Below, piece by piece: positions 28,286 through 41,514 of a stretch of DNA of 62,812 bases. This DNA is from Desulfurococcales archaeon (GTDB taxonomy: Archaea > Thermoproteota > Thermoprotei_A > Sulfolobales > Acidilobaceae). The stretch is from positions 1-62,812 of the forward strand of contig WAKG01000085.1 of assembly GCA_015523445.1 (NCBI GenBank), read 5' to 3'. Position 1 is the stretch's first letter, and every line of letters starts with the position of its first letter. Under the pieces are notes generated by a model that was given only the letters and a program-made list of their open reading frames with translations, ran no database searches and was not told the origin of the DNA. A program made the position numbers and the translations under genes.

Positions 28286-29707
28286 ATGGTGGAGGCAGTC
28301 CTATACCTGATGTATGCGACCCTCGCCTCCTCCCTCATAGTACCAGCCATAGCCTCGAGGGAGGAGGTAGGGGCTAGGCCAGTAATCGCTATCTCCCTAG
28401 CCGGAGTGACGGCTTACCTGGTAGGCTCGCTCCTACTAGTAGCGGAGGCCCAGGGCACCATAGTGGAGTACTATGATGGACTCGTCGTCCACGATAGCTT
28501 CTCAGCTATGATGACTCTGAGTGCTGGGGTTGTGGCGGCTGTGGCGCTACTAGCGGCTGCTAGGGAGCCAGCACTCTGGACAACCCACCCAGCATACTAT
28601 AGCCTGCTACCAATGTCCCTCTTCGGCGTATTCTTCCTAGCAGGAGCCATGGATGCCCTGGTAGTCCTAGCAGCATGGATGCTTGTATCAGTGATAAGCT
28701 ACGTCATCATAGCGCTCCCCGACGATAAGGAGAGTAGTAAGGCCGCTGTAAGGTACATATACGTGGGCGCTGTGGCAACTCTACTCCTAGGCCTCTGGGT
28801 TGCAAGCCAGGCCGTGGCGGCCGCTGACCTGGGCATACAGCCCCTGGGCCTGGCCCCAGCTATGGAGGGTACAGCTTCAGGCCTAGCGGCCAGCCTGATA
28901 CTGGCAGCCCTGGGATTCAAGCTGGGCTTGGTACCCTTCCACTGGTGGCTTCCAAGCGTCTACTCTAGGGCCCACGGCAGGGCGGTGGCACTGGTAGCGG
29001 GCCCCGTGAAGATAGGCTTCATAGCGCTACTAACAAGGATAATATACCAGGCATCCCAGCAACCCTTCGGCTTCGAGACACTAGCAGGGGGAACGCTCCT
29101 AGCAGGGGTCTTAGCAGTAGCCAGCATAGCTACCATGACGTATGGTAACATAGCGGCCCTTACCCCGAGGAACGTCCAGGCGATACTGGCCTACAGTAGC
29201 ATAGCGCACGTGGGCTACATACTAGCTGGCCTAGCAGCCCTAGCATACCTAAACACGGTAGATCCAGGCCTGGCAAGCCTAGCCCTGGCAGGAATAGTGA
29301 TCCAGTCACTGGCATACGGCCTATCAAAGGCGCCACTATTCAGCCTAGCCCCCGAGGCGGGCCAGGATCTAGACGACTGGAGGGGGCTGGCAGGGAGTAG
29401 CAGAGCCACCAGCGTCGGGGTAGCGGTGCTCCTACTAAGCCTTCTAGGAGTACCCCCACTACTAGGCTTCTGGGGCAAGCTCTACATATTCATAGCAGCA
29501 GCAAGCTACAGCATGCTACTAGTACTAATAGCACTAGTGAATAGTGGCGTAAGCTCGGCATACTACATAAGGGTCATGAGGGAGGTCCTAACAGGCAGCA
29601 GGGAGGAGGGGATCATAAGCGACGAGCTAAAAGCCGCAATCGTGCTAGCATCACTCCTAACGATAGCGCTGGGACTCCTAGCCCCCGCCCTCCTAAGCCT
29701 AATATAA
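28286..29707 (+). CDS. nuoN: NADH-quinone oxidoreductase subunit N
   Basis: 473-aa antiporter-like protein. It includes FHWWLPSVYSRAHG and AYSSIAHVGYILAG. Last gene of the operon. Confidence 0.85.
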   Translation: MVEAVLYLMYATLASSLIVPAIASREEVGARPVIAISLAGVTAYLVGSLLLVAEAQGTIVEYYDGLVVHDSFSAMMTLSAGVVAAVALLAAAREPALWTTHPAYYSLLPMSLFGVFFLAGAMDALVVLAAWMLVSVISYVIIALPDDKESSKAAVRYIYVGAVATLLLGLWVASQAVAAADLGIQPLGLAPAMEGTASGLAASLILAALGFKLGLVPFHWWLPSVYSRAHGRAVALVAGPVKIGFIALLTRIIYQASQQPFGFETLAGGTLLAGVLAVASIATMTYGNIAALTPRNVQAILAYSSIAHVGYILAGLAALAYLNTVDPGLASLALAGIVIQSLAYGLSKAPLFSLAPEAGQDLDDWRGLAGSSRATSVGVAVLLLSLLGVPPLLGFWGKLYIFIAAASYSMLLVLIALVNSGVSSAYYIRVMREVLTGSREEGIISDELKAAIVLASLLTIALGLLAPALLSLI

Positions 29708-29986
29708 TCTAATCCTAATCTTTGTAATATAAATTGTAAAATTTATAATTTATCAGATAACATCATAATTACAATAATTTTTAATTATATAATAAAAAAT
29801 TAAATAAAATATTTCTAAAGTCGCGGGGGTAGTTTACTTGCTTGCCTTGTTTTCACGTTACTAGATACTATAGACTTTTAGTTATTATGACTCTCTGTGG
29901 TTAAAGTTTAGACGACAAGTCACCTAGTGACCATTAATGCCCTTAACGCTACACGTAGGTATATAGTTGTAGGGGTGGCTATGTGA
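29708..29986. other. Extremely AT-rich non-coding left boundary of a low-GC insertion, containing a candidate promoter for the ATPase gene
   Basis: Composition collapses immediately after the nuoN stop (for example taaattgtaaaatttataatttatc and aataatttttaattatataataaaaaattaaataaaat). The element GTATATAG at 29959-29966 lies about 25 nt upstream of ATG 29987. Confidence 0.6.
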
Positions 29987-31480
29987 ATGACTAAGGCTAG
30001 GCATAAAGCCTCTAAGAAAAGGAAAACGAGTCCACTATATATGATATCAAAAATAAAAATAAAAAATTTTAAAAACATAAAAGAAACAGATATTACTCTA
30101 TTGCCTGGCGTAAATATTTTAGTGGGCCCTAATGCAAGTGGTAAAACTAGTATTTTGGAAGCAACATATTTCCTTTATAAAGCGTTAATAGATGCTGCCG
30201 AAAAGACTCCCTATCGCCCTCATATTCCTGAATATTGGAGTGGATTAGATCTCATACATGGCAAAGATCCAAATAAGAATATAGAAATAGGAATAACATT
30301 AAATGTATATTTACCATCTAATAAAAATGATAAATGGTGCCATGAAACGATAGAAGGAGTTGTGGTATTTGGATATGATGCACAGCGGGATACAATCTTG
30401 CCAATCGAATATAATTTTCTAATAAGTAATTATTTATATTTAAAAATAAATACTAACTCTATAGAAATTATAATGAATAAAGAATCCTGGGAAGCATCCG
30501 GCAAACCTGGCCGTAATAGTGCATCGTCAATAATTGAGAAAAAGAATAAAGTTATACTTACATATAATATAGATCCAAGAAGAATAACATCAGTCTTTCT
30601 TCATCCAAGAGCTATAATATCTATGTATGAAACAGATTTTCATATTATTAATTATGCAATTAAGAAGAAAGGTGATAACAGGTCATCTTATAAAGTTAGC
30701 TTTATAAGGTTTCCCCTCTTGGATATTGAAATACCTGTTGTGTTAAGGCCCTTTACTGAGTGTTCCGAAGAAGCCAAGGGAATACCCGTTTCATGGGACA
30801 ATATGTTGTTAAACTTTTTGCTTAGTAAGGTAGATTATCTAGATCCTTCACTTGCTATATCATTATTATTTGATGCCATTCGTAAAATTGTATTTTTGCG
30901 ACATCCCGATGCGGGTGCTCTTCGCGAGCCTAGGCCTTTTACTGGAAGCAATAGATTGAATCCAAGGGCTCAGAATCTCGCAGAAGTTCTCTTAACCCTT
31001 CATGGCAGGCTCGGACGTATGCCAGAGAGACTTGAGGAACTCATCTCTAAGGCATTTCCCGAATTTAGGGTTTGGGTTGACTCAAAGTTTGGCCGTGTCG
31101 TATTGATGTCTGAATGGAGAGGTATAGAGATGCCTCCTCCAAACCTTCCAGATGGCCTCATAAAAACTCTGGCAATAGGTGCGGCTATTGAGCTAGGTCC
31201 TAGTTTATTGCTTATAGATGAGATAGAGAACAGTCTGCATGCTAATCTATTAGAAATCATTATCGATGAATTAAACCAGTTACCGGTCCCCGTGATAGCA
31301 GCTACACATAGTCCTATTCCTGTTGATATTGTTGGACCTGAAAGGACTATTGTAGTCTTATCTGAAAGAGATGGAGTAGTAGTTGAGAGGATAAGAGATC
31401 CGGTGAAACTTAGAAAATCCTTAGCAGAGCATGGTGTTACTTTCAGTGACTATATTTATGGGGTGACAGTTAAAGATTGA
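29987..31480 (+). CDS. ABC/SMC-type P-loop ATPase (AAA_21/OLD-ATPase-like), candidate defence ATPase
   Basis: N-terminus MISKIKIKNFKNIKETDITLLPGVNILVGPNASGKTSILEA (Walker A at 30125-30151). Signature-like PDGLIKTLAIGAAI. Walker B SLLLIDEIENSLH (D at 31217-31219). H-loop IAATHSP. The likely true start is the internal ATG 30041. Confidence 0.8.
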   Translation: MTKARHKASKKRKTSPLYMISKIKIKNFKNIKETDITLLPGVNILVGPNASGKTSILEATYFLYKALIDAAEKTPYRPHIPEYWSGLDLIHGKDPNKNIEIGITLNVYLPSNKNDKWCHETIEGVVVFGYDAQRDTILPIEYNFLISNYLYLKINTNSIEIIMNKESWEASGKPGRNSASSIIEKKNKVILTYNIDPRRITSVFLHPRAIISMYETDFHIINYAIKKKGDNRSSYKVSFIRFPLLDIEIPVVLRPFTECSEEAKGIPVSWDNMLLNFLLSKVDYLDPSLAISLLFDAIRKIVFLRHPDAGALREPRPFTGSNRLNPRAQNLAEVLLTLHGRLGRMPERLEELISKAFPEFRVWVDSKFGRVVLMSEWRGIEMPPPNLPDGLIKTLAIGAAIELGPSLLLIDEIENSLHANLLEIIIDELNQLPVPVIAATHSPIPVDIVGPERTIVVLSERDGVVVERIRDPVKLRKSLAEHGVTFSDYIYGVTVKD

Positions 31481-32019
31481 ACTATAGTTTGCGTATAGTT
31501 GCTGTGGAGGATACGTATGGCGTCGGGTTCCACAATGAGCTGATATCGTGGCTTATAGGCTCGAGTATCTTGTGCAATAGCCGCCCTAGGATTAGAAGGA
31601 TGCCTGCTAAAAAGTGTAATCATGCTCTCTATAGAAAGCTTGTTGGCATAGCTCTGGCTAAAGCATTTAATAATTGGAAGATATTAGTTGTAATCGATTC
31701 TGAAGGCAGGGCCCCAGAGGAGGCTTCAAGGCAGGACGTATTATCCCACATTCAAAAAGGAGTTGAGGAGCACTTTCGCGTTGCCGTTGTAGAGCCCCTC
31801 CATGAAGCGTGGGTTTGTCTGGGTCTCGGAGGCCCTAGGGCCATCTGTAGATCTGGAAAGGGTGCTATCAGATTTATAGAGACTACTCTGGGAGTTAGGT
31901 ACGAGAAGAGATTACTCGAGAAGATACCGAAAATGCGGGAATTTACATTTTCAAGGCTTCTTGAGGAACGTGATTTTCAAGTATACATCCAAGGCTTGAA
32001 GTGGCTCCTGGATTGTTGA
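31477..32019 (+). CDS. Small TOPRIM-like (DUF4276/RloB/DUF4435-like) protein, putative nuclease partner of the ATPase
   Basis: TTG start overlaps the ATPase TGA (TTGA), preceded by GGGGTGA. Motif order: RIVAVEDTYG (E11 at 31507-31509), KILVVIDSEG (D74 at 31696-31698), VAVVEPLHEAWVCLG. This E...DxE/D...ExW arrangement is the pattern I recall for small TOPRIM-like partners of AAA_21 ATPases. Confidence 0.5.
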   Translation: MNYSLRIVAVEDTYGVGFHNELISWLIGSSILCNSRPRIRRMPAKKCNHALYRKLVGIALAKAFNNWKILVVIDSEGRAPEEASRQDVLSHIQKGVEEHFRVAVVEPLHEAWVCLGLGGPRAICRSGKGAIRFIETTLGVRYEKRLLEKIPKMREFTFSRLLEERDFQVYIQGLKWLLDC

Positions 32020-32159
32020 GAATATGCTAAATCAGTAGGTATCTTAGCTAGCCTTACATTTTTAGATTTAGATCTATAGTGTCTGTAGTTTTTAAGCTTG
32101 TGTTTACCAACTGTACATTTCCTACATGTCTCACTACTATAGCCCTTAGCCTGCTAATA

Positions 32160-33263
32160 GTGGCTGGGGGCTTAGAGTTGAGGCCTAGGGAGCTGCTGGA
32201 GAGGCTAGCCGATAAGGTGCGGGAGGACAAGGTTCTGGGGGGTATGACTCCTAGGCCGCCGCCTGACGTGTTGGAGGTTTGCCGTCTTTACTCTTGGCAG
32301 AATATGGGTGATCCCGAGTCTTACACGGCCTCTAGGGAGGCGGCTAGTTACATAGTCTCTACCGCGAGCCTAGCTGTGTTTGGCATGGAATATCCGGGCT
32401 GGGTGACCAGCGGGGCGAGCGAGGGGAACCTGCTGGCTCTTTATGCGCTCCGGGAGATGGGATACAGTAAGGTCCTCTACTTCCAGTCGGCTCACTACTC
32501 TATACCGAAATCTGCTAGGATACTCGGCATGAGGGCTGAGCCGCTACCCGTGGCAGGGGGCTACGAGCCGCTCCTAGGCGAGCTCAAGTCCAGGCTTAGG
32601 GAGGGTGACATAGTTGTGGCCACTGTGGGCACCACTGAGACCGGGTATATTGACCCGGTGCTTGAGGTGGCGGAGACTGCGGAGGCCCGGGGGGCTGTGG
32701 TCCATGTTGACGCGGCCTTCGCAGGCCCCATAATGCGATACCTAGGCGATGGTAAGGTGCCTAGGAGGCTGAGAGGGGCGGTTGCAAGTATTGTTATGGA
32801 TATGCATAAGATCCCGGAGGCCCCCGCAGGGGTCGGCCTACTGCTGGCTAGAGACAGGGAGTTTATAGAGTTCCTATACCATAGTGCGCCCTACATACCC
32901 TCGGGCCGCCAATTCGGGGTTCTCGGGACCAGGAATGGGGGTCCCGTGGTGGCTGCTGCCTACGCCCTCTCTAAGATGGTTGAGTATGGTGTTGAGAGGC
33001 TGGCCTCAGAGCTGATGAGGGCCTCCGAGACGCTGGTATCAGTGCTGGAGCCCCACGGTTATGGAGTGCTTCACGGGGTGGAGACACCTATACTATGCCT
33101 TATACACCCCAGCCACAACAGTGTCTTCATGAGGCTAGGTGAGATGGGCTATAGAGCCTACAGGTGCCTCGGCGGTAGGGGGGTTAGGATGGCTGTTATG
33201 CCACACCTACTACCTGAGCTCGGCGAGGTGGCTAGGATCCTTGCCAGGGCAGCAGGGGGATGA
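32160..33263 (+). CDS. mfnA: PLP-dependent group II decarboxylase (MfnA-like tyrosine/aspartate decarboxylase)
   Basis: GWVTSGASEGNLLAL, VHVDAAFAGP, and the lysine motif MDMHKIPEAPAGVGLL...GTRNGGP. The track ORF starts at 32079, but its first ~27 codons lie in AT-rich DNA. GTG 32160 or TTG 32178 are more plausible starts. Confidence 0.8.
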   Translation: MAGGLELRPRELLERLADKVREDKVLGGMTPRPPPDVLEVCRLYSWQNMGDPESYTASREAASYIVSTASLAVFGMEYPGWVTSGASEGNLLALYALREMGYSKVLYFQSAHYSIPKSARILGMRAEPLPVAGGYEPLLGELKSRLREGDIVVATVGTTETGYIDPVLEVAETAEARGAVVHVDAAFAGPIMRYLGDGKVPRRLRGAVASIVMDMHKIPEAPAGVGLLLARDREFIEFLYHSAPYIPSGRQFGVLGTRNGGPVVAAAYALSKMVEYGVERLASELMRASETLVSVLEPHGYGVLHGVETPILCLIHPSHNSVFMRLGEMGYRAYRCLGGRGVRMAVMPHLLPELGEVARILARAAGG

Positions 33264-34028: not shown

Positions 34029-34415
34029 CGGCCTATAGGCCTGGGAGCACCGCGTCTCTTCTAGGACCTTACCAGTCGTGTACTCCAGGGAGTCCTTGAG
34101 CACCTTGGCAATAAGCAGTACACCGGCTAGGGTGAAGAATAGCCCGGTTAAGGCGCTTGACACGAAAAGGTTCCTCAGAGTCCTAACCCTACCGGTCCTG
34201 GTAAGGTCCTCAAACCTCTTTACATGTAGCAGCGTATAGATCTCGAACATGCCCCCTACAAGGGCCATGCCCACAGAGGTAGATGTCAGTATAGACTGGA
34301 ACGGAGGACTGGGAAGTATTGACCCGAGGACGGCAACCCATATTGATGAGGCCATGAGTACTGGGCCAGCTATACTAGCCCTCTCCAGACCATATTCATC
34401 CACCCGCTCCACCAC
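33906..34415 (-). CDS. Small integral membrane protein (about 4 TM), last gene of the NurA/HerA/MBL operon
   Basis: Hydrophobic segments AGPVLMASSIWVAVLGSIL, VGMALVGGMFEIYTLL, SALTGLFFTLAGVLLIAKVL and LLFIATLGMYLAPF. The start overlaps the MBL gene end by 20 nt. The 3' end overlaps the convergent FdhE-like gene. Confidence 0.5.
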   Translation of the reverse strand: MVERVDEYGLERASIAGPVLMASSIWVAVLGSILPSPPFQSILTSTSVGMALVGGMFEIYTLLHVKRFEDLTRTGRVRTLRNLFVSSALTGLFFTLAGVLLIAKVLKDSLEYTTGKVLEETRCSQAYRPLLFIATLGMYLAPFQACVSSTAAEVGEDLELLGLEGDQGE

Positions 34416-35397
34416 CCACCACCGGCCTGGCGAAGGACCTTATACCTAGAACCCTCTCCAGGTATCTAGCTGTAAACCACGCGTCTTTCCCCCTATAAGC
34501 ATCCACTACAACCATTCTAGGCGAGGCCTCCCTCACGTACTCCACGATCTCCCTAAACGTGGCGTGGTCGCTGAAGGAGACATTATACACGTTATCCGCA
34601 ACCCTAGCGGCCGGGGCCCTCAGCTCCCACCCCGTCAACACTATATGGGTCCCTGGGAGCCTCCTCTTACCCCTAGACCTTGAGGCGTGCATGAAGAGGA
34701 CCACCGACTCCCCATGCTCCCTCCCAGTGTAAACCCTCACATCATCCAGCTGGTACCCGTAGAACTCCGCCGCGACCCTGGCGAGCTTCACGGTCTTCTC
34801 ATCAGCGATGAAGGGATAGGTTACACCCCGCCTCCTAAGCTCTACCATTACCTCCTGAAGCTTCCCATTGTACCCATAGACCCACACAGGGCCCCGGGAT
34901 ATGTTATCCTCTATCAGGCTCACCAGGGCTGCCAGGGCGTCCCACTCCCCCCACCTCCTCTGTAGCCTAGGGCTCCCATAGGTAGCGTCTATAACTAGCA
35001 CGTCGAGGCCTTGCATGGGAGGGGTGCCTGGCATCTTAAAGTCACCCGTATACCCTACCACTCCACCCCTGCACTCGACGAGGACCTGGCTACTACCCGC
35101 TATATGCCTGGCAATCTTTAGCTCTAGGACCTCGTCCTCCAAAGCTATCCTCCTATCATAGGGGAGCTCCAGCCTCTTCGCCTCTGGCACTTTCTGGCCA
35201 AGGATCTCGAGGAACCTGAAGGTAGTTGGCGTGGCTATTATGAAGAGGCTCTCCCTCACGCTCCTCGAGAGGCCCATAGTGTGGTCTGAGTGGGCGTGGG
35301 TGACGACCCTATAGGGCCTAGGCCAGAACGAGTCTGCAACCACCCCCTCCCCAAGCAGCACAGCACCCCTGCCAGCAACATCAGCAGTGCATGCCAT
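34396..35397 (-). CDS. Short beta-CASP-type metallo-beta-lactamase-fold nuclease
   Basis: HxHxDH as VVTHAHSDHTMG, later H (IARHIAGS) and D (YTGDFK). beta-CASP-like motif A is VIDATYGSP and motif B is SFSDHATFREIVEYV. 333 aa. Confidence 0.75.
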   Translation of the reverse strand: MACTADVAGRGAVLLGEGVVADSFWPRPYRVVTHAHSDHTMGLSRSVRESLFIIATPTTFRFLEILGQKVPEAKRLELPYDRRIALEDEVLELKIARHIAGSSQVLVECRGGVVGYTGDFKMPGTPPMQGLDVLVIDATYGSPRLQRRWGEWDALAALVSLIEDNISRGPVWVYGYNGKLQEVMVELRRRGVTYPFIADEKTVKLARVAAEFYGYQLDDVRVYTGREHGESVVLFMHASRSRGKRRLPGTHIVLTGWELRAPAARVADNVYNVSFSDHATFREIVEYVREASPRMVVVDAYRGKDAWFTARYLERVLGIRSFARPVVGGGAGG

Positions 35398-35457
35398 AGC
35401 TACTATCCGCCCCAGGTTGGCATAAGGGGCCCCCGGTAGTTATATGGGGTGAAACAC

Positions 35458-37614
35458 CTATCCCGCCAGCCTCAGCCTATCCACCATAACCAGTAGGGGT
35501 ACCCGCCTCTCTGGCGCTGCCAGGCCGGTTACAAGTGCCTCCCCCATACTAGGCTCTAGGTCGGGTAGCCTATCGACTATATCGCTAGCAGCACTCTCTA
35601 CCCCCCTCTTTATCGTTGACAGGTCGTCAGGGTTAGTTGTCCTCAAGAGTATGCTGGACGCCGTCTGGCTAAGCACGCCGGGGTCCACGAAGGCTGGCCT
35701 CTGGGTTACTAGCCACATACTCAACCCCCACTTCCTCCCCTCCCTGGCTACCCGTAGGAGTGATGCCTTGCTGGCCCTCTCCACCCCGGCCGGGGCTAGG
35801 TTGTGTGCCTCCTCCACGACAAGCACGGTTAGCCTCCTAGGATCGTAATCTCCCACGTGTAGATTGAACAGCCTCCTTATCAGGGTTGAGAGTAGCAGAT
35901 CCACGTTGCCAGTGCTGGGCGGGGCTAGGTGCACTATGGAGAAGCCCTCCATAAGCCTGCTCATAAGTGCATCGAATATGAGAGGATCCACCACGTCGCT
36001 GGTCATACCAGCTACCTTACGGAGCCTCCTGAGCACTCCACTCAATATGTGATCACTGTACTCGGTAGTCCTCAGATAGTATATAGCATCAGACAGCCGT
36101 GCCCTCGCCTCCCCCACGCCATCTGGGCTCCCAAGGAGGCTACAGAGCGCCTGCTTCTCCCCCGCTCTGGCTGGATCGGCGTATCCAAGCCTGTAGGAGA
36201 GCCAGGCAAGGTAGCGGAGGAGGGGGAAGAAGTACTTCCTGCCGCTCTTGGCATCTCCAGCCAGTATGATGCCCAGCTCGTCTTCAGGCTTCTTATCTTG
36301 GGCGCCGCACCAAAGTATCATAGCGTCGAGGATCTTCCCAGCCCTACCTTCGGCGTCTCTCCTGGTCGATATGCCTCCGGTGAGCCTTCTGTTGAGGTGT
36401 GCATCTAGCAGAGCGTTCATGAGGGTGACCCCATAGATGTCATGGCCACTGTAGAGGTCTAGGGCTGATGCTAGGTCGGATACTATTAGGGGGAAGTACT
36501 CGCTGGTGGCCCCGCTAACCTCGATCATCTCCTCCACATCCATGAAGCCGGGCAGGGGGAGGAGTATAACCAGGCTCCTGCTATCCCTGATCAGCCTGTA
36601 AGCATCATTATACCTAGCCTTGGAGGGCTGGAGCCCCGAGCAGCCTGGGGTGGCCCTTGACATAGCCCTATCCTTGTCGAAAAAGGCCAGCACATCTACA
36701 CTCGAGCCTAGCCTTGGGGTCAGGGAGAGGCTGCAGGCCATATCAGCAAGTCCATTCCACAGGTACTCCCTCTGCACTTGAGCTCCTGCACGGGAGGCCT
36801 CGTATGGTACTATGATAGTGAGGCGCCCCGGCTGCCTGCCTCCGCCATACTTCTCTGGCATCATCACAGCGTCTAGGAGGGGCACCGTGTCCTCCCTTAG
36901 GTAGGGGTACCCGGTGTATTCCCCGGCTATGTCGAATACTATTATCCCGCCCCTAGGGTAGCCTATCCTATCCCTCCTCGAGGAGACCTCGTATACCAGC
37001 CTCTTCACGGTCTCCGTCTTACCGCTACCCGTCTGGCCCAGTATTGATAGGTGGGTTGTTAGCCTGTCTGGGTTCAGGTAGATCCTGACCTCCCTATTGT
37101 AGCTTAGCCTGCCCAGGTAGAGGCCGCTCTCAGAGTAGTCCCCTCCGAGCCGGTGGTGGAGGAGGCTCTCAAGCCTCAAAGGGTCGGGATACTGGATCCT
37201 GCTGAAGGGCCGGGGCGGCCTGTCATAGGGTTCCAGCCTCTCCCCATCGCCAGCCCTTACGACGTGGCCTAGGACGTTCAGCTCGACCTTCATTATACTG
37301 CTCCACCTGACTAGCTCCTGGCCGGGGCTCATTATCTCCTCCAGCACCCTGACAGCATCCTCCAGCCTGGTGGCTCCTATGGACTCGTAGATCCTTCTGA
37401 GCCTCTCAACGTCTAGGGCCGGGTGGGGAGTCTCCTCCTTCACATCTGTGATCATGGCTAGGTACCTGTCCCCCGAGGTCCTATCGCTGACCTCGACGAG
37501 CGTGCCGTACCTTACCACAGCCTCGGCCGGCCTCAGGAGTATGCCCTGCACGCGGCCATAAGCCTCTATACTAGTCGTGAAGCCAGTAAGCCTATCCTCA
37601 GCCACGATACCCAC
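35458..37614 (-). CDS. HerA/DUF87-family (FtsK-HerA superfamily) ATPase, long form
   Basis: Walker A ILGQTGSGKTE (aa 191-201), HerA-typical IIVFDIAGEY, Walker B LTVLVVEEAHNLAP (aa 595-608), then REGRKWGLSMWLVTQRP. N-terminal HAS-barrel-like region. Confidence 0.85.
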   Translation of the reverse strand: MGIVAEDRLTGFTTSIEAYGRVQGILLRPAEAVVRYGTLVEVSDRTSGDRYLAMITDVKEETPHPALDVERLRRIYESIGATRLEDAVRVLEEIMSPGQELVRWSSIMKVELNVLGHVVRAGDGERLEPYDRPPRPFSRIQYPDPLRLESLLHHRLGGDYSESGLYLGRLSYNREVRIYLNPDRLTTHLSILGQTGSGKTETVKRLVYEVSSRRDRIGYPRGGIIVFDIAGEYTGYPYLREDTVPLLDAVMMPEKYGGGRQPGRLTIIVPYEASRAGAQVQREYLWNGLADMACSLSLTPRLGSSVDVLAFFDKDRAMSRATPGCSGLQPSKARYNDAYRLIRDSRSLVILLPLPGFMDVEEMIEVSGATSEYFPLIVSDLASALDLYSGHDIYGVTLMNALLDAHLNRRLTGGISTRRDAEGRAGKILDAMILWCGAQDKKPEDELGIILAGDAKSGRKYFFPLLRYLAWLSYRLGYADPARAGEKQALCSLLGSPDGVGEARARLSDAIYYLRTTEYSDHILSGVLRRLRKVAGMTSDVVDPLIFDALMSRLMEGFSIVHLAPPSTGNVDLLLSTLIRRLFNLHVGDYDPRRLTVLVVEEAHNLAPAGVERASKASLLRVAREGRKWGLSMWLVTQRPAFVDPGVLSQTASSILLRTTNPDDLSTIKRGVESAASDIVDRLPDLEPSMGEALVTGLAAPERRVPLLVMVDRLRLAG

Positions 37615-37618
37615 ACCC

Positions 37619-39223
37619 CTACGACATATACCTTCTCCGGGTGGCGAAGTCTCTTATGAAAGTGGAGTAGGGCACTATCCTCCTCCCCAGGCTCTCTAGG
37701 AGGCTGGCCAGGGCCGCGGCCTCCCACTCGTTAACCCTACTCCTCTGGTCAACAACTATAAGGGGGGAGGGTACGCCGAAGTGTGTGGCCTGGCTCTGCG
37801 TGTATATATGCCTGGCAAGGTCTACACTGTCCCCACCGGGGATATACTCGAGCCTTATGGGGTGCCTGACCTGCACCAGCTCGGCCAGCTCCCTCGGCGT
37901 CATGCCCATCCTCTCGGCATGCCTTGCCAGGGTCTGGCATGAGGGTATGCGGTCTGTGAAGATGTATGTGAACATGACCTCCGGCAGGCCGGAGAGGCTC
38001 CTCTCAGCCGGGATTCCAGTGGCGTCCTCCAGCCTGTTCGACCCGTAGCTAGCCACTGCGGGAGGCTCGACCAGGGTCTTCTTGCTGAGTGGAGGGGTCC
38101 CAGCCAGCTCCTCCGGGCCGAATAGGTACCTGTACAGCATCATGACGTCAACATCACTCTTAACACCAAGCCTCTCAAGAGCCTGGCCACGGTATATTGC
38201 TAGGACGAGATCGCCCCTACCCTGCTTGGAGGCCTCCTCCTCCAACACCTCCCAGGGCGGCCTAGAGGAGGAGAAGAGGCTGGCCAGCATGGATTCTAGG
38301 AGCGCAGCCATATCATGGGCAGTCCTGCCAGGCTCCTCCACGAGGTCCTCGGCACACCCAGCTCTGGATATAGCCCTCTTTATAAGGGCATCAGCGTGGA
38401 GCCCCCGCGGGTACGACTCCATAACTCCGAGTAGCGTGTAGGTTGAGAGCTGCCTACTCCTACTAAGATCCTCAGAGACAGCTGCAATAGTGGCCCCGTC
38501 AACTCTGCCTAGCCTGGAGAGGAGGGCCACCGCCGCCAGCCCGGGGTTGCACGCCTCGCCATGACCACCCCTCCTAACTATAGACTCGTCCCTAACACTA
38601 TACACGACCTCCAGGGGAAGGCCAGAGTATCTGAGCACAGCCTCCACACTCCTACACGGCATGTCGAAGACCCTATTGAAGTACGTGCCAAACTGCTGTA
38701 ACAGGGCCCCATGCCTCACGACAAGCCTACGCCCCCCAGGCGAGCCAGGAGGCTGCTCGCCCAGAGCTATTGAGAGCATTATACCCAGCTCGGCTAGGTA
38801 GAGGCTGGCCTGCCTCTGCCTCTCGCCCCCCACAACGGGTAGGAAGGAGTAGCCCCCACTACCGATCAAGGGGTAGAGGATGCGCTCTCTAACCCTATCC
38901 CCTGCCCAACACCTCTCCAGCACTGCAGCCTTGAGCACGAAGCCCTCAACACCGCCACGAGTCCCCCTATACCCCCTGGCTCCCACATCTATGAAGTACT
39001 CGCACTCCCACCTAACCCCGAGAAGAGGCTCTACTTGGCCAAGACCGCTCCAGCCACCCCGGATCAGGCTAGCCCCGCCAAACTCCTCCACACCCCTAGC
39101 GGCTAGTGCCAGGGCAAGCCCTCCCCACTCCGGCGAAGCATCGCCAAGCTCTGTATACGCCAATTCCATAAACCCCCAATAAGGTGAGTATGGATGATTA
39201 AGGATAATTAGGAAATCCAACAC
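37619..39223 (-). CDS. NurA-like nuclease-domain protein (tentative), upstream partner of the HerA-like ATPase
   Basis: Stop lies 4 nt before the HerA-like start. C-terminal THFGVPSPLIVVDQRSRV resembles the NurA GYPYxLxxAHxxA block. Candidate N-terminal YFIDVGARG and central RRLVVRHGALLQQF resemble the NurA xDGS / DGSL strands, but with substitutions. The call is by context plus weak motifs. Confidence 0.4.
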   Translation of the reverse strand: MLDFLIILNHPYSPYWGFMELAYTELGDASPEWGGLALALAARGVEEFGGASLIRGGWSGLGQVEPLLGVRWECEYFIDVGARGYRGTRGGVEGFVLKAAVLERCWAGDRVRERILYPLIGSGGYSFLPVVGGERQRQASLYLAELGIMLSIALGEQPPGSPGGRRLVVRHGALLQQFGTYFNRVFDMPCRSVEAVLRYSGLPLEVVYSVRDESIVRRGGHGEACNPGLAAVALLSRLGRVDGATIAAVSEDLSRSRQLSTYTLLGVMESYPRGLHADALIKRAISRAGCAEDLVEEPGRTAHDMAALLESMLASLFSSSRPPWEVLEEEASKQGRGDLVLAIYRGQALERLGVKSDVDVMMLYRYLFGPEELAGTPPLSKKTLVEPPAVASYGSNRLEDATGIPAERSLSGLPEVMFTYIFTDRIPSCQTLARHAERMGMTPRELAELVQVRHPIRLEYIPGGDSVDLARHIYTQSQATHFGVPSPLIVVDQRSRVNEWEAAALASLLESLGRRIVPYSTFIRDFATRRRYMS

Positions 39224-39548: not shown

Positions 39549-41378
39549 ATGGCGAGCACGCTCTGGTGTGATCGGGGTGAAAATAGCGTGAGTAAGAGTA
39601 AGAAGACAAGTAAGATAACACTAGGCGAGGCACATGCCCGGATAATCCTAGCCGTGGGCGCATACCAGGAGCTGGGTGTAGAGCCGGAATACGGCGATAT
39701 CGCGAGGGCCACGAACAGGAGCCTCTCTAGGATCAGGGCAGTAGTCTCGGAGCTACTAAGGAGCAACCATAATCTTATCAAGAAGGTACCCGACACCCCA
39801 GTCAAGATACTCCTCACCGAGAAGGGGAAGAGGGTATACAAGGAGCTGAAGGCATCAATCTTGAAGAACGCAGAGGAGGTAATCGAGCCATCCAAGCTAA
39901 TCAAACTATTCGAAGACAGAATATATACTGATAGCAGGCAGAAGAAGTCCTTCGGTTCCGTGGAGGTAGCAATAGATACCGTAGTCCCTGCACTGAAGCT
40001 TAGGGAAGTCACGGAGAACCTGAAGAGAGGCTTCGGCCCAAGCCTACTGTACGGGTTATCGATAGAACTGGCAACAGCAACTCAGATAGCATCAGCCTCT
40101 GGTATAGGAAGTATAAGCTTTAACGAGCTATCGAGGCAGGTGATCAACGTCCCAATCAGGGTGGCCCGCGTCACGGATGTATCACTGCCACCACATATAG
40201 AGGGGAGCATAATCCCCATGGAGAGGGCGCGCGGGGCACTACGCTCCGTAACTATATGGCCGGAAAAGTCTAGGGGACGTGACATATACAGCTACGCCGT
40301 TGAGGCCGATGCCCTCGGGCTAGTTAAAGTAGCTAAAAGCGGGAAAGACGAGGTATACCTACAGCCCAAGCTCAATACTGGAATAGACGTCATAGACAAG
40401 CTCTCGGCCATAGGTTTCGATGTACTAGCATCTAATCCGACAAGGGCATGGCTACCCATACTATCAGTATACGGCGATGTAACCACACAGTTCCCAACAA
40501 AAGAAGAAGTGCTCAGCGGGAGCACACCCCTACTCGGCATACTCGGCGATGTAGTAGGCCCTAGCAAGGTGGAGAGATGGACCAAACACATGCTTGGACT
40601 CCAGAAAAGCCTCAATATACCGGCCCTAAACGTAGGGGCACCATATAAGACACTCGGCATAATCGATGTTATCAAGGTTGGCGACGAGAGCAGACTATTA
40701 TCACTCACGGTAGCACGTAGGATTATCGGAAGAAATGTAAAAAACCTACTAGAAGAAGAAGGATACAACATTAATCAGATATACAGGACAGTTGAGGAGA
40801 AGATCAGGAGGATCCTAGAGGATACAGGAGCATACGCCTATGTACTAAAAGAGTTTATAAGGAATGGGTTCATGGATAGAATCCAAGCTCTAGAGGTAGC
40901 AAGGCGACACATAGACAGCAACCCGGAGAGGATCCTAAAAGACCTAGAGAAGCTGGGGTTCATCTACTCAGTCGGGACCGGATACTATAGCGCATGGACC
41001 ATAACACCGATATACTACGAGGAGGATGAGACTCTGAGGACTCTACTGGCTTGGCTGTCAAAGGAGCTAAGAAGCTTTGGGAACGAGATGTACGAGGAAA
41101 TAATAAGGAAATTAATAGAGAATGGAGAAGTTGATATAGTAAACTTAGAATCCAGAACTTTAATTAGGGTAGTACGTGGTCTATCTATACTAGAAAAAAT
41201 GGGTTTAGTACAATTCATAGGAGATGAAACAGTAAAAGTAACAAGCGATAAGGCTCGCAAACTACTGACAACCGCATATATCGAGAAGAAGCTAGGTGTG
41301 GAAATTGGCTCAATAACACCATACGAACGTAAAAAACTACCTGATATAAAAGAAACTATTATAGATAAACTAAAGTAA
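39549..41378 (+). CDS. Large orphan protein with N-terminal winged-helix (MarR/TrmB-like) DNA-binding domain and further wHTH-like repeats
   Basis: N-terminus EAHARIILAVGAYQELGVEPEYGDIARATNRSLSRIRAVVSELLRSNHNLIKKV...LTEKGKRVYKEL has a wHTH pattern. C-terminal segments (ILKDLEKLGFIYSVG and VVRGLSILEKMGLVQFIG) look like additional winged helices. I see no enzymatic motif. Confidence 0.55.
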   Translation: MASTLWCDRGENSVSKSKKTSKITLGEAHARIILAVGAYQELGVEPEYGDIARATNRSLSRIRAVVSELLRSNHNLIKKVPDTPVKILLTEKGKRVYKELKASILKNAEEVIEPSKLIKLFEDRIYTDSRQKKSFGSVEVAIDTVVPALKLREVTENLKRGFGPSLLYGLSIELATATQIASASGIGSISFNELSRQVINVPIRVARVTDVSLPPHIEGSIIPMERARGALRSVTIWPEKSRGRDIYSYAVEADALGLVKVAKSGKDEVYLQPKLNTGIDVIDKLSAIGFDVLASNPTRAWLPILSVYGDVTTQFPTKEEVLSGSTPLLGILGDVVGPSKVERWTKHMLGLQKSLNIPALNVGAPYKTLGIIDVIKVGDESRLLSLTVARRIIGRNVKNLLEEEGYNINQIYRTVEEKIRRILEDTGAYAYVLKEFIRNGFMDRIQALEVARRHIDSNPERILKDLEKLGFIYSVGTGYYSAWTITPIYYEEDETLRTLLAWLSKELRSFGNEMYEEIIRKLIENGEVDIVNLESRTLIRVVRGLSILEKMGLVQFIGDETVKVTSDKARKLLTTAYIEKKLGVEIGSITPYERKKLPDIKETIIDKLK

Positions 41379-41514
41379 AACTTTATTTATTATTAATTTA
41401 TAATAAATTAAAATTTTTATATAATCATTTTAACTATTCATATTAGTATTAATGATGGATATGACGGGCTTCTTAGCTAGTCGTGGTATATGATGTCTTA
41501 TAATGAGTTTTTAA
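41379..41514. other. AT-rich spacer with T-tracts (likely terminator) and a 7-bp inverted repeat AATTTAT-a-ATAAATT at 41395-41409
   Basis: The sequence taaaactttatttattattaatttataataaattaaaatttttat lies directly after the stop at 41376-41378. Archaeal terminators are oligo-T tracts. Confidence 0.4.

Follow-up and report, generated by a model that had tools for sequence, protein, structure and literature searches.

Pairs of an AAA15/21 ATPase with a Toprim, DUF4276 or RloB effector are listed among the defence systems (PMC11464382), and both DUF4276 and RloB belong to the Toprim superfamily, for which the positions of a catalytic Glu and of a DxD motif have been defined (PMC12065111). HEC-01 (PADLOC 'Hma-embedded candidate 01') consists of the ABC ATPase HEC-01A and the small TOPRIM protein HEC-01B (bioRxiv 10.1101/2024.01.29.577857). 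The MADS system of P. aeruginosa contains the pair MAD3-MAD4, and its protection is lowered by mad3 and mad4 deletions. PARIS (OLD class 4) combines the ABC ATPase AriA with the DUF4435 Toprim protein AriB. Here, we analysed a contig of 62,812 nt (WAKG01000085.1, GenBank assembly GCA_015523445.1; in the following, the window) from a Desulfurococcales archaeon of the Acidilobaceae, in which a low-G+C cassette between nuoN and an mfnA-like gene for a pyridoxal phosphate (PLP)-dependent decarboxylase carries two open reading frames (ORFs), an ABC-type ATPase (ORF-A) and a small Toprim-like protein (ORF-B). Its domain identities, intact catalytic motifs, A-B linkage, purifying selection and site polymorphism are documented below. 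We regard the cassette as a real, self-contained, functional and horizontally acquired two-gene operon, and a defence candidate resembling HEC-01 or PARIS is what the pair most likely represents.

HEC-01 is the closest named architecture. It has the same two genes in the same order, and in both cases a nuclease with the Toprim metal site is the predicted effector. In the PADLOC model scan, the HEC-01A match of ORF-A (1.2e-21) lay beside a HEC-01B match of ORF-B that reached only E 0.007 and was sub-threshold. However, HEC-01 was defined from genes embedded in bacterial Hma systems, whereas the pair described here stands alone between archaeal housekeeping genes, and ORF-A contains a β-rich insert without a solved counterpart. 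MAD3-MAD4 resembles the pair in that a DUF4276-type protein accompanies an ABC ATPase of the AAA_15/21 type. In contrast to the pair here, MAD3 and MAD4 belong to the accessory components of a system of eight genes with mandatory MAD6-8 within about 10 genes, and the scores of our two proteins fall far under the NCBIfam equivalog cutoffs (66 vs 420 bits for MAD3, 14.5 vs 160 bits for MAD4).

PARIS shares with the cassette the split of ATPase and Toprim into adjacent genes and provides a mechanistic template, in which detection of a viral trigger by the ATPase scaffold leads to release of the nuclease. It differs in several respects: ORF-B and its family gave no match to DUF4435 or AriB in Pfam and PADLOC, the B-family profile A2 missed AriB in the PDB, AriA was distant from ORF-A in a PDB sequence search (3.4e-5), and PARIS is often phage- or satellite-borne, whereas the contig scan found the pair here without viral copies. 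With regard to AbiL and RloA-RloB, ORF-A matches AbiLi, and some members of the B family match RloB and AbiLii. The window ORF-B itself, however, matches neither RloB (PF13707) nor AbiLii, the B-family scores against RloB reach at most 23.9 bits (gathering threshold 31.5), and the cassette does not adjoin a type I restriction-modification locus. OLD class 1 (P2 Old, Thermus OLD), GajA of Gabija (class 2) and PtuA of Septu and retrons belong with ORF-A to one clade of ABC ATPase heads. Yet ATPase and Toprim are fused in OLD and GajA and occupy separate ORFs here; GajA needs the UvrD-like helicase GajB, and the cassette encodes no helicase; and the PtuA of Septu and retron I-A pairs with the HNH nuclease PtuB, whereas ORF-B has no HNH match. 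We conclude that the pair is not a member of PARIS, Gabija/OLD, Septu or MADS. It is a divergent, mostly archaeal clade overlooked by current models and related to the known systems of ATPase plus Toprim.

The cassette stands out first by its composition. With a G+C content of 0.374 over ~29720-32087 it is the minimum among all 2.36-kb stretches of the 62.8-kb window (mean 0.553, standard deviation 0.038), roughly 4.7 standard deviations lower than the mean. The G+C content at third codon positions is 0.27 in ORF-A and 0.46 in ORF-B, compared to 0.60-0.72 in the flanking genes. An earlier note on this DNA, made from the sequence alone, had described a collapse in G+C directly after nuoN, with recovery only at the mfnA-like gene, and an insertion of exactly two genes. 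Recounting gave identical values (37/60 at 29641-29700 and 13/60 at 30061-30120), a level of 0.59 was reached again in the decarboxylase gene, and the nuoN/decarboxylase gap indeed holds two long ORFs in the same orientation. DNA alignments with two homologous loci from relatives, L001 and L007, placed the boundaries: the common flank stops ~15 nt past the nuoN stop and resumes at GTTTTTAAGC (32088). The nuoN-like ORF ends at 29707 and is followed by a spacer of 279 nt, of which the part 29930-29986 is conserved with L001, while the remainder varies in length. Within the conserved part, a TATATA (29960-29965), located ~24 nt upstream of the ATG at 29987, may act as a promoter element. No integrase was found among the ORFs of the cassette, no tRNA and no Rfam family, and a search for flanking direct or inverted repeats revealed none that were convincing.

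ORF-A is well recognized by general ATPase models. It passed the Pfam thresholds for AAA_21 (3e-19, 70.6 bits; cutoff 27), AAA_15 (1.6e-15, 58 bits; cutoff 32.1) and AAA_23. HEC-01A was its best PADLOC match; others were PDC-M25A, AriA (2.4e-20), AbiLi (1.4e-18), mad3, PtuA, Old and GajA. The NCBIfam matches to MAD3, RecF, PtuA and Rad50 were all far under the equivalog cutoffs and covered mostly the Walker A region. The SMC/ABC layout that had been read from the sequence (GPNASGKTS, LLLIDEIENSLH and ATHSP) is present in full, with the Walker A motif at G47-S55 (K53), a signature-like PDGLIK, Walker B at D411-E412 and the H-loop at H441. The elements GxNxxGK, DGxxK, DE-x-ENS-x-H and HSP were invariant across 47 homologues. 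At least 162 homologues of ORF-A exist, mostly in thermophilic archaea (Vulcanisaeta, Desulfurococcales, Caldarchaeum, Hodarchaeota), and their annotation is limited to 'AAA family ATPase'. Because these homologues align without exception from residue 19-22 on, the protein may start at M19 (ATG 30041; 479 aa); a leaderless start at ATG 29987 would be compatible with the TATATA 24 nt upstream.

The AlphaFold (AF2) model of ORF-A (pLDDT 89.5, pTM 0.90) shows a β-rich insert at about residues 95-270 that separates the two halves of the ABC head. Foldseek searches with this model returned PtuA (Septu, retron I-A), Thermus OLD, Rad50 and GajA as top matches (prob 1.0, E 1e-11 to 1e-9), and a sequence-profile search of the PDB ranked PtuA (2.5e-14) and OLD 6p74 (1.4e-13) before GajA (~3e-6) and AriA. 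The TM-scores of 0.35-0.44 indicate that ORF-A and the solved structures have the ABC head alone in common, and Foldseek found no counterpart of the insert among solved structures. The insert region (30212-30856, residues 76-290) has the lowest G+C content (~0.30) and, in the comparison between the window and L001, the highest ratio of nonsynonymous to synonymous substitution rates (ω) in ORF-A, 0.25 vs 0.05-0.10 in the ABC head. For many homologues, good alignment is confined to the C-terminal 40% of the protein (52-60% identity). These results point to a fast-evolving or recombining sensor region, and the raised ω is as expected for a sensor surface.

For ORF-B, a word-indexed search found 6 homologues, an exhaustive profile search ~155 cluster representatives, the majority of them from thermophilic archaea. 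The acidic motifs noticed earlier, E(D), DSE and EAW, are all found (VAVEDTYG, VVIDSEG and EPLHEAW), and the predicted catalytic residues are E11(D12), D74-S-E76 and E110. Within the family, E11 is conserved in 105/113 members (and is Asp in 6 more), D74 in 113/114, and position 76 is Glu or Asp in 106/113; overall, the catalytic set is conserved at 93-100%. HEC-01B was the only PADLOC match of ORF-B, and its alignments to HEC-01B and MAD4 are both in register. Among 114 aligned members of the B family, 47 matched PADLOC mad4 (best 1.5e-8) and at least 26 HEC-01B, 22 matched Pfam DUF4276 (E<=0.01) and 12 RloB, and the models ATPase-Toprim_I-B and AbiLii matched 6 members each. Profile A2 recovered proteins tagged as PF14103 and PF13707. 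When the profile A1, built from the close clade of the window ORF-B, was compared by hhalign with the disjoint, PF14103-tagged (DUF4276) clade A6, the two aligned over 151 columns with a probability of 98.2% (E 3.5e-14), and the DUF4276-tagged clade shares the motifs VEDTYG, DADD and EIEEWICYS.

The AF2 model of ORF-B (pLDDT 91.9, pTM 0.87) has a β-α-β-α-β-α-β core, to which a helical part is joined at the C-terminus. Strand β1 (residues 5-10) is followed by E11, β3 (67-74) ends in D74-S-E76, and E110 lies after β4. Thus, E11 and D74-x-E76 fit the positions of the Toprim Glu after β1 and the DxD at the end of β3 (PMC12065111). The order of the secondary-structure elements in the model would fit the Toprim fold (three-layer α/β with the sheet order β2-β1-β3-β4). 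Structural support is partial: in a Foldseek search against BFVD, the top match was a phage RloB-like protein (E 1.5e-3, prob 1.0, TM 0.54), and no PDB entry matched significantly. The suggestion of the earlier note that the small protein is Toprim-like has therefore gained support from the profile link at family level and from the conserved acidic residues, and we regard ORF-B as Toprim-like, its clade being one that lies between DUF4276 and RloB and is not covered by a model. The family has one further conserved feature: C47, H91 and C114 occur in 103, 101 and 103 of the 114 members (~90%), and W112 is conserved, too. This Cys/His/Cys set, which is absent from descriptions of canonical Toprim domains, could bind a metal or form a disulfide.

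Both genes are closely connected. The start codon of ORF-B overlaps the ORF-A stop within the tetranucleotide TTGA, behind a Shine-Dalgarno-like GGGGTGA 11-17 nt upstream, an arrangement already recognized in the earlier note, and the junction sequence is identical in L001. To follow the linkage, locus scans were repeated with A1, the 114-sequence alignment being too divergent for them. At 20 of 20 further loci with an ORF-B homologue (33-47% identity, locus G+C 0.36-0.64), and additionally at L105, a homologue of ORF-A is located directly upstream on the same strand, and at nearly all of 21 loci the two genes overlap or are separated by a gap of at most ~25 nt. The flanks of the pair change by locus and include a PheRS fragment and a HEPN fragment as well as glycosyltransferases together with DUF4258/DUF2283 toxin-antitoxin genes, PaREP1 and STAND-like ATPases. 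Hence, A and B form a fixed pair in changing surroundings. At one metagenomic locus (L005:1-1502), a fragmented ATPase was observed upstream of an intact B gene; this copy is either in decay or misassembled.

To assess the history of the insertion site, loci of related Acidilobaceae metagenome-assembled genomes were retrieved with NuoN, and the identities given here are those of NuoN to the window. Four loci (L001, L002, L003 and L008; 91%) carry the same A+B cassette with the same low G+C content at this junction. L007 (92%) carries different cargo of ~1.2 kb, and L009 (66%) has no insert, with nuoN and the decarboxylase gene almost contiguous. This suggests that the nuoN/decarboxylase junction is a cassette-exchange hotspot. 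The stretch L007:1820-3120 (JALUDK010000140.1) is the homologue of window 29720-32087; its cargo includes an ORF of 247 aa (L007:2252-2995) with a weak match to PD-(D/E)xK nucleases (E 0.0066) and an 'IVEIKRNRG' motif, and without matches in PADLOC, PHROG or the PDB. The empty site (L009:2289-2417, JALWGG010000141.1) has neither the AT-rich spacer nor the TTTTTAAG box.

The flanking genes of L001 and L007 are 95-96% identical, and those of the window share 82-85% identity with both. Most simply, these values mean that A+B was ancestral to the group and has recently been replaced in L007. Between the window and L001, the number of synonymous substitutions per synonymous site (dS) is 0.43 for ORF-A and 0.59 for ORF-B, compared to 0.63-0.87 for the flanks, and ω is 0.14 for ORF-A and 0.07 for ORF-B. 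A flank-like dS together with low ω characterizes the cassette as an old resident under purifying selection. A very recent acquisition was rejected, as the dS values of A and B are comparable to those of the flanks. The horizontal acquisition postulated in the earlier note is nevertheless consistent with the low G+C content, the polymorphism of the site and the occurrence of the same pair in unrelated contexts, albeit not as a recent event. That note had also named an observation that would speak for a housekeeping module, namely conservation of the pair at this locus across the whole order with host-like composition; the empty site in L009 and the other cargo in L007 show a different picture.

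Considering these results together with the comparison to the named systems, we regard it as rather probable that the pair defends its host against viruses or other mobile DNA, similarly to PARIS, AbiL, MAD3-MAD4 and HEC-01. In the best-supported scheme, which follows the analogy to these systems, ATPase A would serve as sensor or gate and the Toprim-like B as effector. A and B would be co-translated and form a complex, ATPase A with its variable β-rich insert would sense an invader-derived protein or nucleic-acid cue, ATP binding or hydrolysis by A would release or activate B, and B would then cut nucleic acid (DNA or RNA) by acidic-residue, metal-dependent Toprim chemistry. Complex formation, trigger, substrate and defence phenotype are what we infer in this scheme.

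Several observations weigh against this interpretation, either against the identity of the effector or against its role. ORF-B alone had no match in Pfam (no DUF4276 at E<=1), and its matches to HEC-01B (E 0.007, 14.4 bits) and MAD4 (E 0.029) lie below the curated thresholds. Even the DUF4276-tagged relatives peak at 29.6 bits, compared to the DUF4276 (PF14103) gathering threshold of 30.2, which places the whole B group formally outside current Pfam models; accordingly, ORF-B is not a DUF4276 member in the strict Pfam sense. The Foldseek search of the PDB with ORF-B returned nothing at E<=1e-3 and generic Rossmann-like folds at the top; sub-significant matches included retron Eco2 (E 0.099, TM 0.46) and PARIS (8ux9_A, E 0.14). 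A PDB sequence-profile search with the B family yielded noise only (uL4, ORC4). For ORF-B, a sheet with the Toprim order and a single cluster formed by the acidic residues are both predictions. With respect to function, the neighbours of the cassette in the window are housekeeping genes (nuo operon, decarboxylase) and not a defence island. The scan of viral contigs with A1 found no virus-borne copies, and in PHROGs a weak match to phrog_1960 was followed by nothing else. Finally, HEC-01 gave no protection against any phage tried in E. coli, so that a defence role of the pair is put forward as a hypothesis, one that for this clade is drawn from sequence and analogy.

The same finding on HEC-01 would also suit a selfish addiction module resembling a toxin-antitoxin system, in which A restrains a toxic nuclease B and the pair persists because of the harm caused by its loss, without a net antiviral benefit. 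The tight coupling of the operon, its patchy distribution, the copies next to DUF4258/DUF2283 toxin-antitoxin genes in accessory regions, and the Pfam label of AAA_21, 'putative AbiEii toxin, type IV TA system', can all be read in this way. However, L007 has lost or replaced the cassette while its flanks are still 95-96% identical to those of L001, therefore the loss is tolerated, and the raised ω in the ATPase insert is more in keeping with a sensor engaged in an arms race than with a simple antitoxin. Moreover, the boundary between toxin-antitoxin and abortive-infection systems is blurred, with PARIS behaving as both. We consider an addiction module without defence benefit unlikely, though worth keeping in mind.

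A housekeeping pair for DNA repair or recombination, analogous to RecF plus RecR or of the Rad50 type, would have a similar layout, as RecF and RecR also combine an ABC ATPase with a small Toprim protein. NCBIfam models of RecF and Rad50 match the Walker A region of ORF-A, and the ABC head has Rad50 as one of its best structural matches. These RecF and Rad50 model matches, however, span only ~45 N-terminal residues and remain far under the curated cutoffs, the pair is missing from the junctions of L009 and L007, two close relatives that have the flanks in common with the window, and a foreign composition and a genomic context varying by locus are not what a repair function would lead one to expect. 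This explanation appears very improbable.

Still less probable is that the pair is a fragment of a larger system, MADS-like or linked to restriction-modification in the manner of RloAB, with its other parts nearby. ORF-A matches mad3 and the NCBIfam model MAD3, members of the B family match mad4, and mad8 is a secondary match (E 1.4e-20) of a HerA-like gene located 3.4 kb downstream. But MADS requires MAD6, MAD7 and MAD8, and a PADLOC scan of 13 neighbouring ORFs detected neither MAD6 nor MAD7, a methyltransferase or any other defence model. The HerA-like gene is better described as a generic HerA and is 92-94% conserved in L007, which lacks A+B, and the A-B pair alone is what 20 other loci have in common. 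Membership in MADS was rejected on these grounds, i.e., the absence of the mandatory MAD6 and MAD7 among the neighbours and the independence of the HerA-like gene from the cassette. The assumption of a decaying, non-functional remnant of an old integration, to which the fragmented ATPase at the homologous locus L005 and the lack of a detected integrase, tRNA or flanking repeats might point, is hardly credible, given that neither ORF is disrupted in the window or in L001 at a dS of ~0.5 and ω of 0.07-0.14 and that all catalytic motifs are intact. Among all explanations, a defence operon with A as gate and B as effector remains the one that we favour.

Table 1 Features of the cassette and of its surroundings in the window
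Feature	Position	Strand	Basis or remarks
Low-G+C variable cassette, ~2.37 kb, between nuoN and the PLP-decarboxylase (mfnA-like) gene	29720..32087	+	DNA alignments with L001 and L007
AT-rich upstream spacer, 29% G+C	29720..29986	+	Promoter-like segment ~29930-29986
ORF-A, ABC-type ATPase of the AAA_15/AAA_21 clade, 497 aa	29987-31480	+	Pfam, PADLOC, AF2, Foldseek
Translational-coupling junction	31460..31480	+	Sequence: GGGGTGA 31460-31466; ORF-B start TTG 31477-31479 overlapping the ORF-A stop TGA 31478-31480
ORF-B, DUF4276/RloB/MAD4-related Toprim-like putative metal-dependent nuclease, 180 aa, TTG start	31477-32019	+	Profiles, AF2
Right flank outside the cassette, with promoter-like TTTTTAAG and probable true decarboxylase start TTG 32178	32088..32180	+	Kept in the window, L001 and L007
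Metallo-β-lactamase/RMMBL protein, 333 aa	34396-35397	-	
HerA-like ATPase, 718 aa	35458-37614	-	PADLOC HerA 5.7e-38
HerA partner, 534 aa, no detectable domain	37619-39223	-	

Additional observations concern the genes around the cassette. At the right flank, TTTTTAAG (32089-32096) is conserved irrespective of the cargo, in L001 and L007 as in the window, and is likely the TATA box of the decarboxylase gene. The mechanically predicted ORF of this gene (32079-33263) extends too far upstream. Based on homology to L007 and L001, the start is more likely the TTG at 32178 or the ATG at 32244, and the L007 decarboxylase ORF begins at a position homologous to the TTG 32178 region. Further downstream, the minus strand carries a block of three ORFs (34396-39223) that is 92-95% conserved in L001 and L007 for the proteins covered, whatever the state of the cassette. 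It contains the HerA-like ATPase and its partner and may represent either a housekeeping HerA or a HerA-based system. A link between the cassette and this HerA-like pair was considered and rejected, since the HerA-like pair is conserved in L007 without A+B. A second patch of low G+C content (~0.32) at 40900-41450 comprises the 3'-terminal part of an ORF of 609 aa (39549-41378) together with the AT-rich spacer that follows it. This ORF had no match in Pfam, PADLOC, PHROG or the PDB, and tblastn found no match in the L001 locus; the patch may be another variable spot.

The earlier note had presumed such a pair to be uncharacterised in hyperthermophilic Crenarchaeota, and our literature search agrees insofar as it turned up no ABC-ATPase/Toprim pair tested in a hyperthermophile. 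Archaeal antiviral immunity outside CRISPR is poorly charted, and with scores under the Pfam, NCBIfam and PADLOC thresholds this family is probably missed by standard defence finders. Hyperthermophiles may possess in this mostly archaeal clade an abortive-infection system that resembles PARIS and stands alone. The β-rich insert of the ATPase, without a solved counterpart, may be a new sensor for archaeal-virus proteins and B, with its additional Cys/His/Cys set, a thermostable nuclease with a new target, and the junction may be a dedicated, integrase-free exchange hotspot for defence genes in Acidilobaceae, with the PD-(D/E)xK-like cargo as an alternative. That all of these suggestions, the abortive-infection system, the new sensor, the nuclease with a new target and the exchange hotspot, hold true together is speculative and rather doubtful. 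The sequences reported here would allow the DUF4276 and RloB models to be extended to archaea. If the function is not defence, a widespread and conserved accessory operon is still documented. The pair offers a compact, thermostable two-protein system in which to study how ABC ATPases gate Toprim nucleases, and the three natural states of the locus, with A+B, with other cargo or empty, lend themselves to the study of cassette turnover without an integrase.

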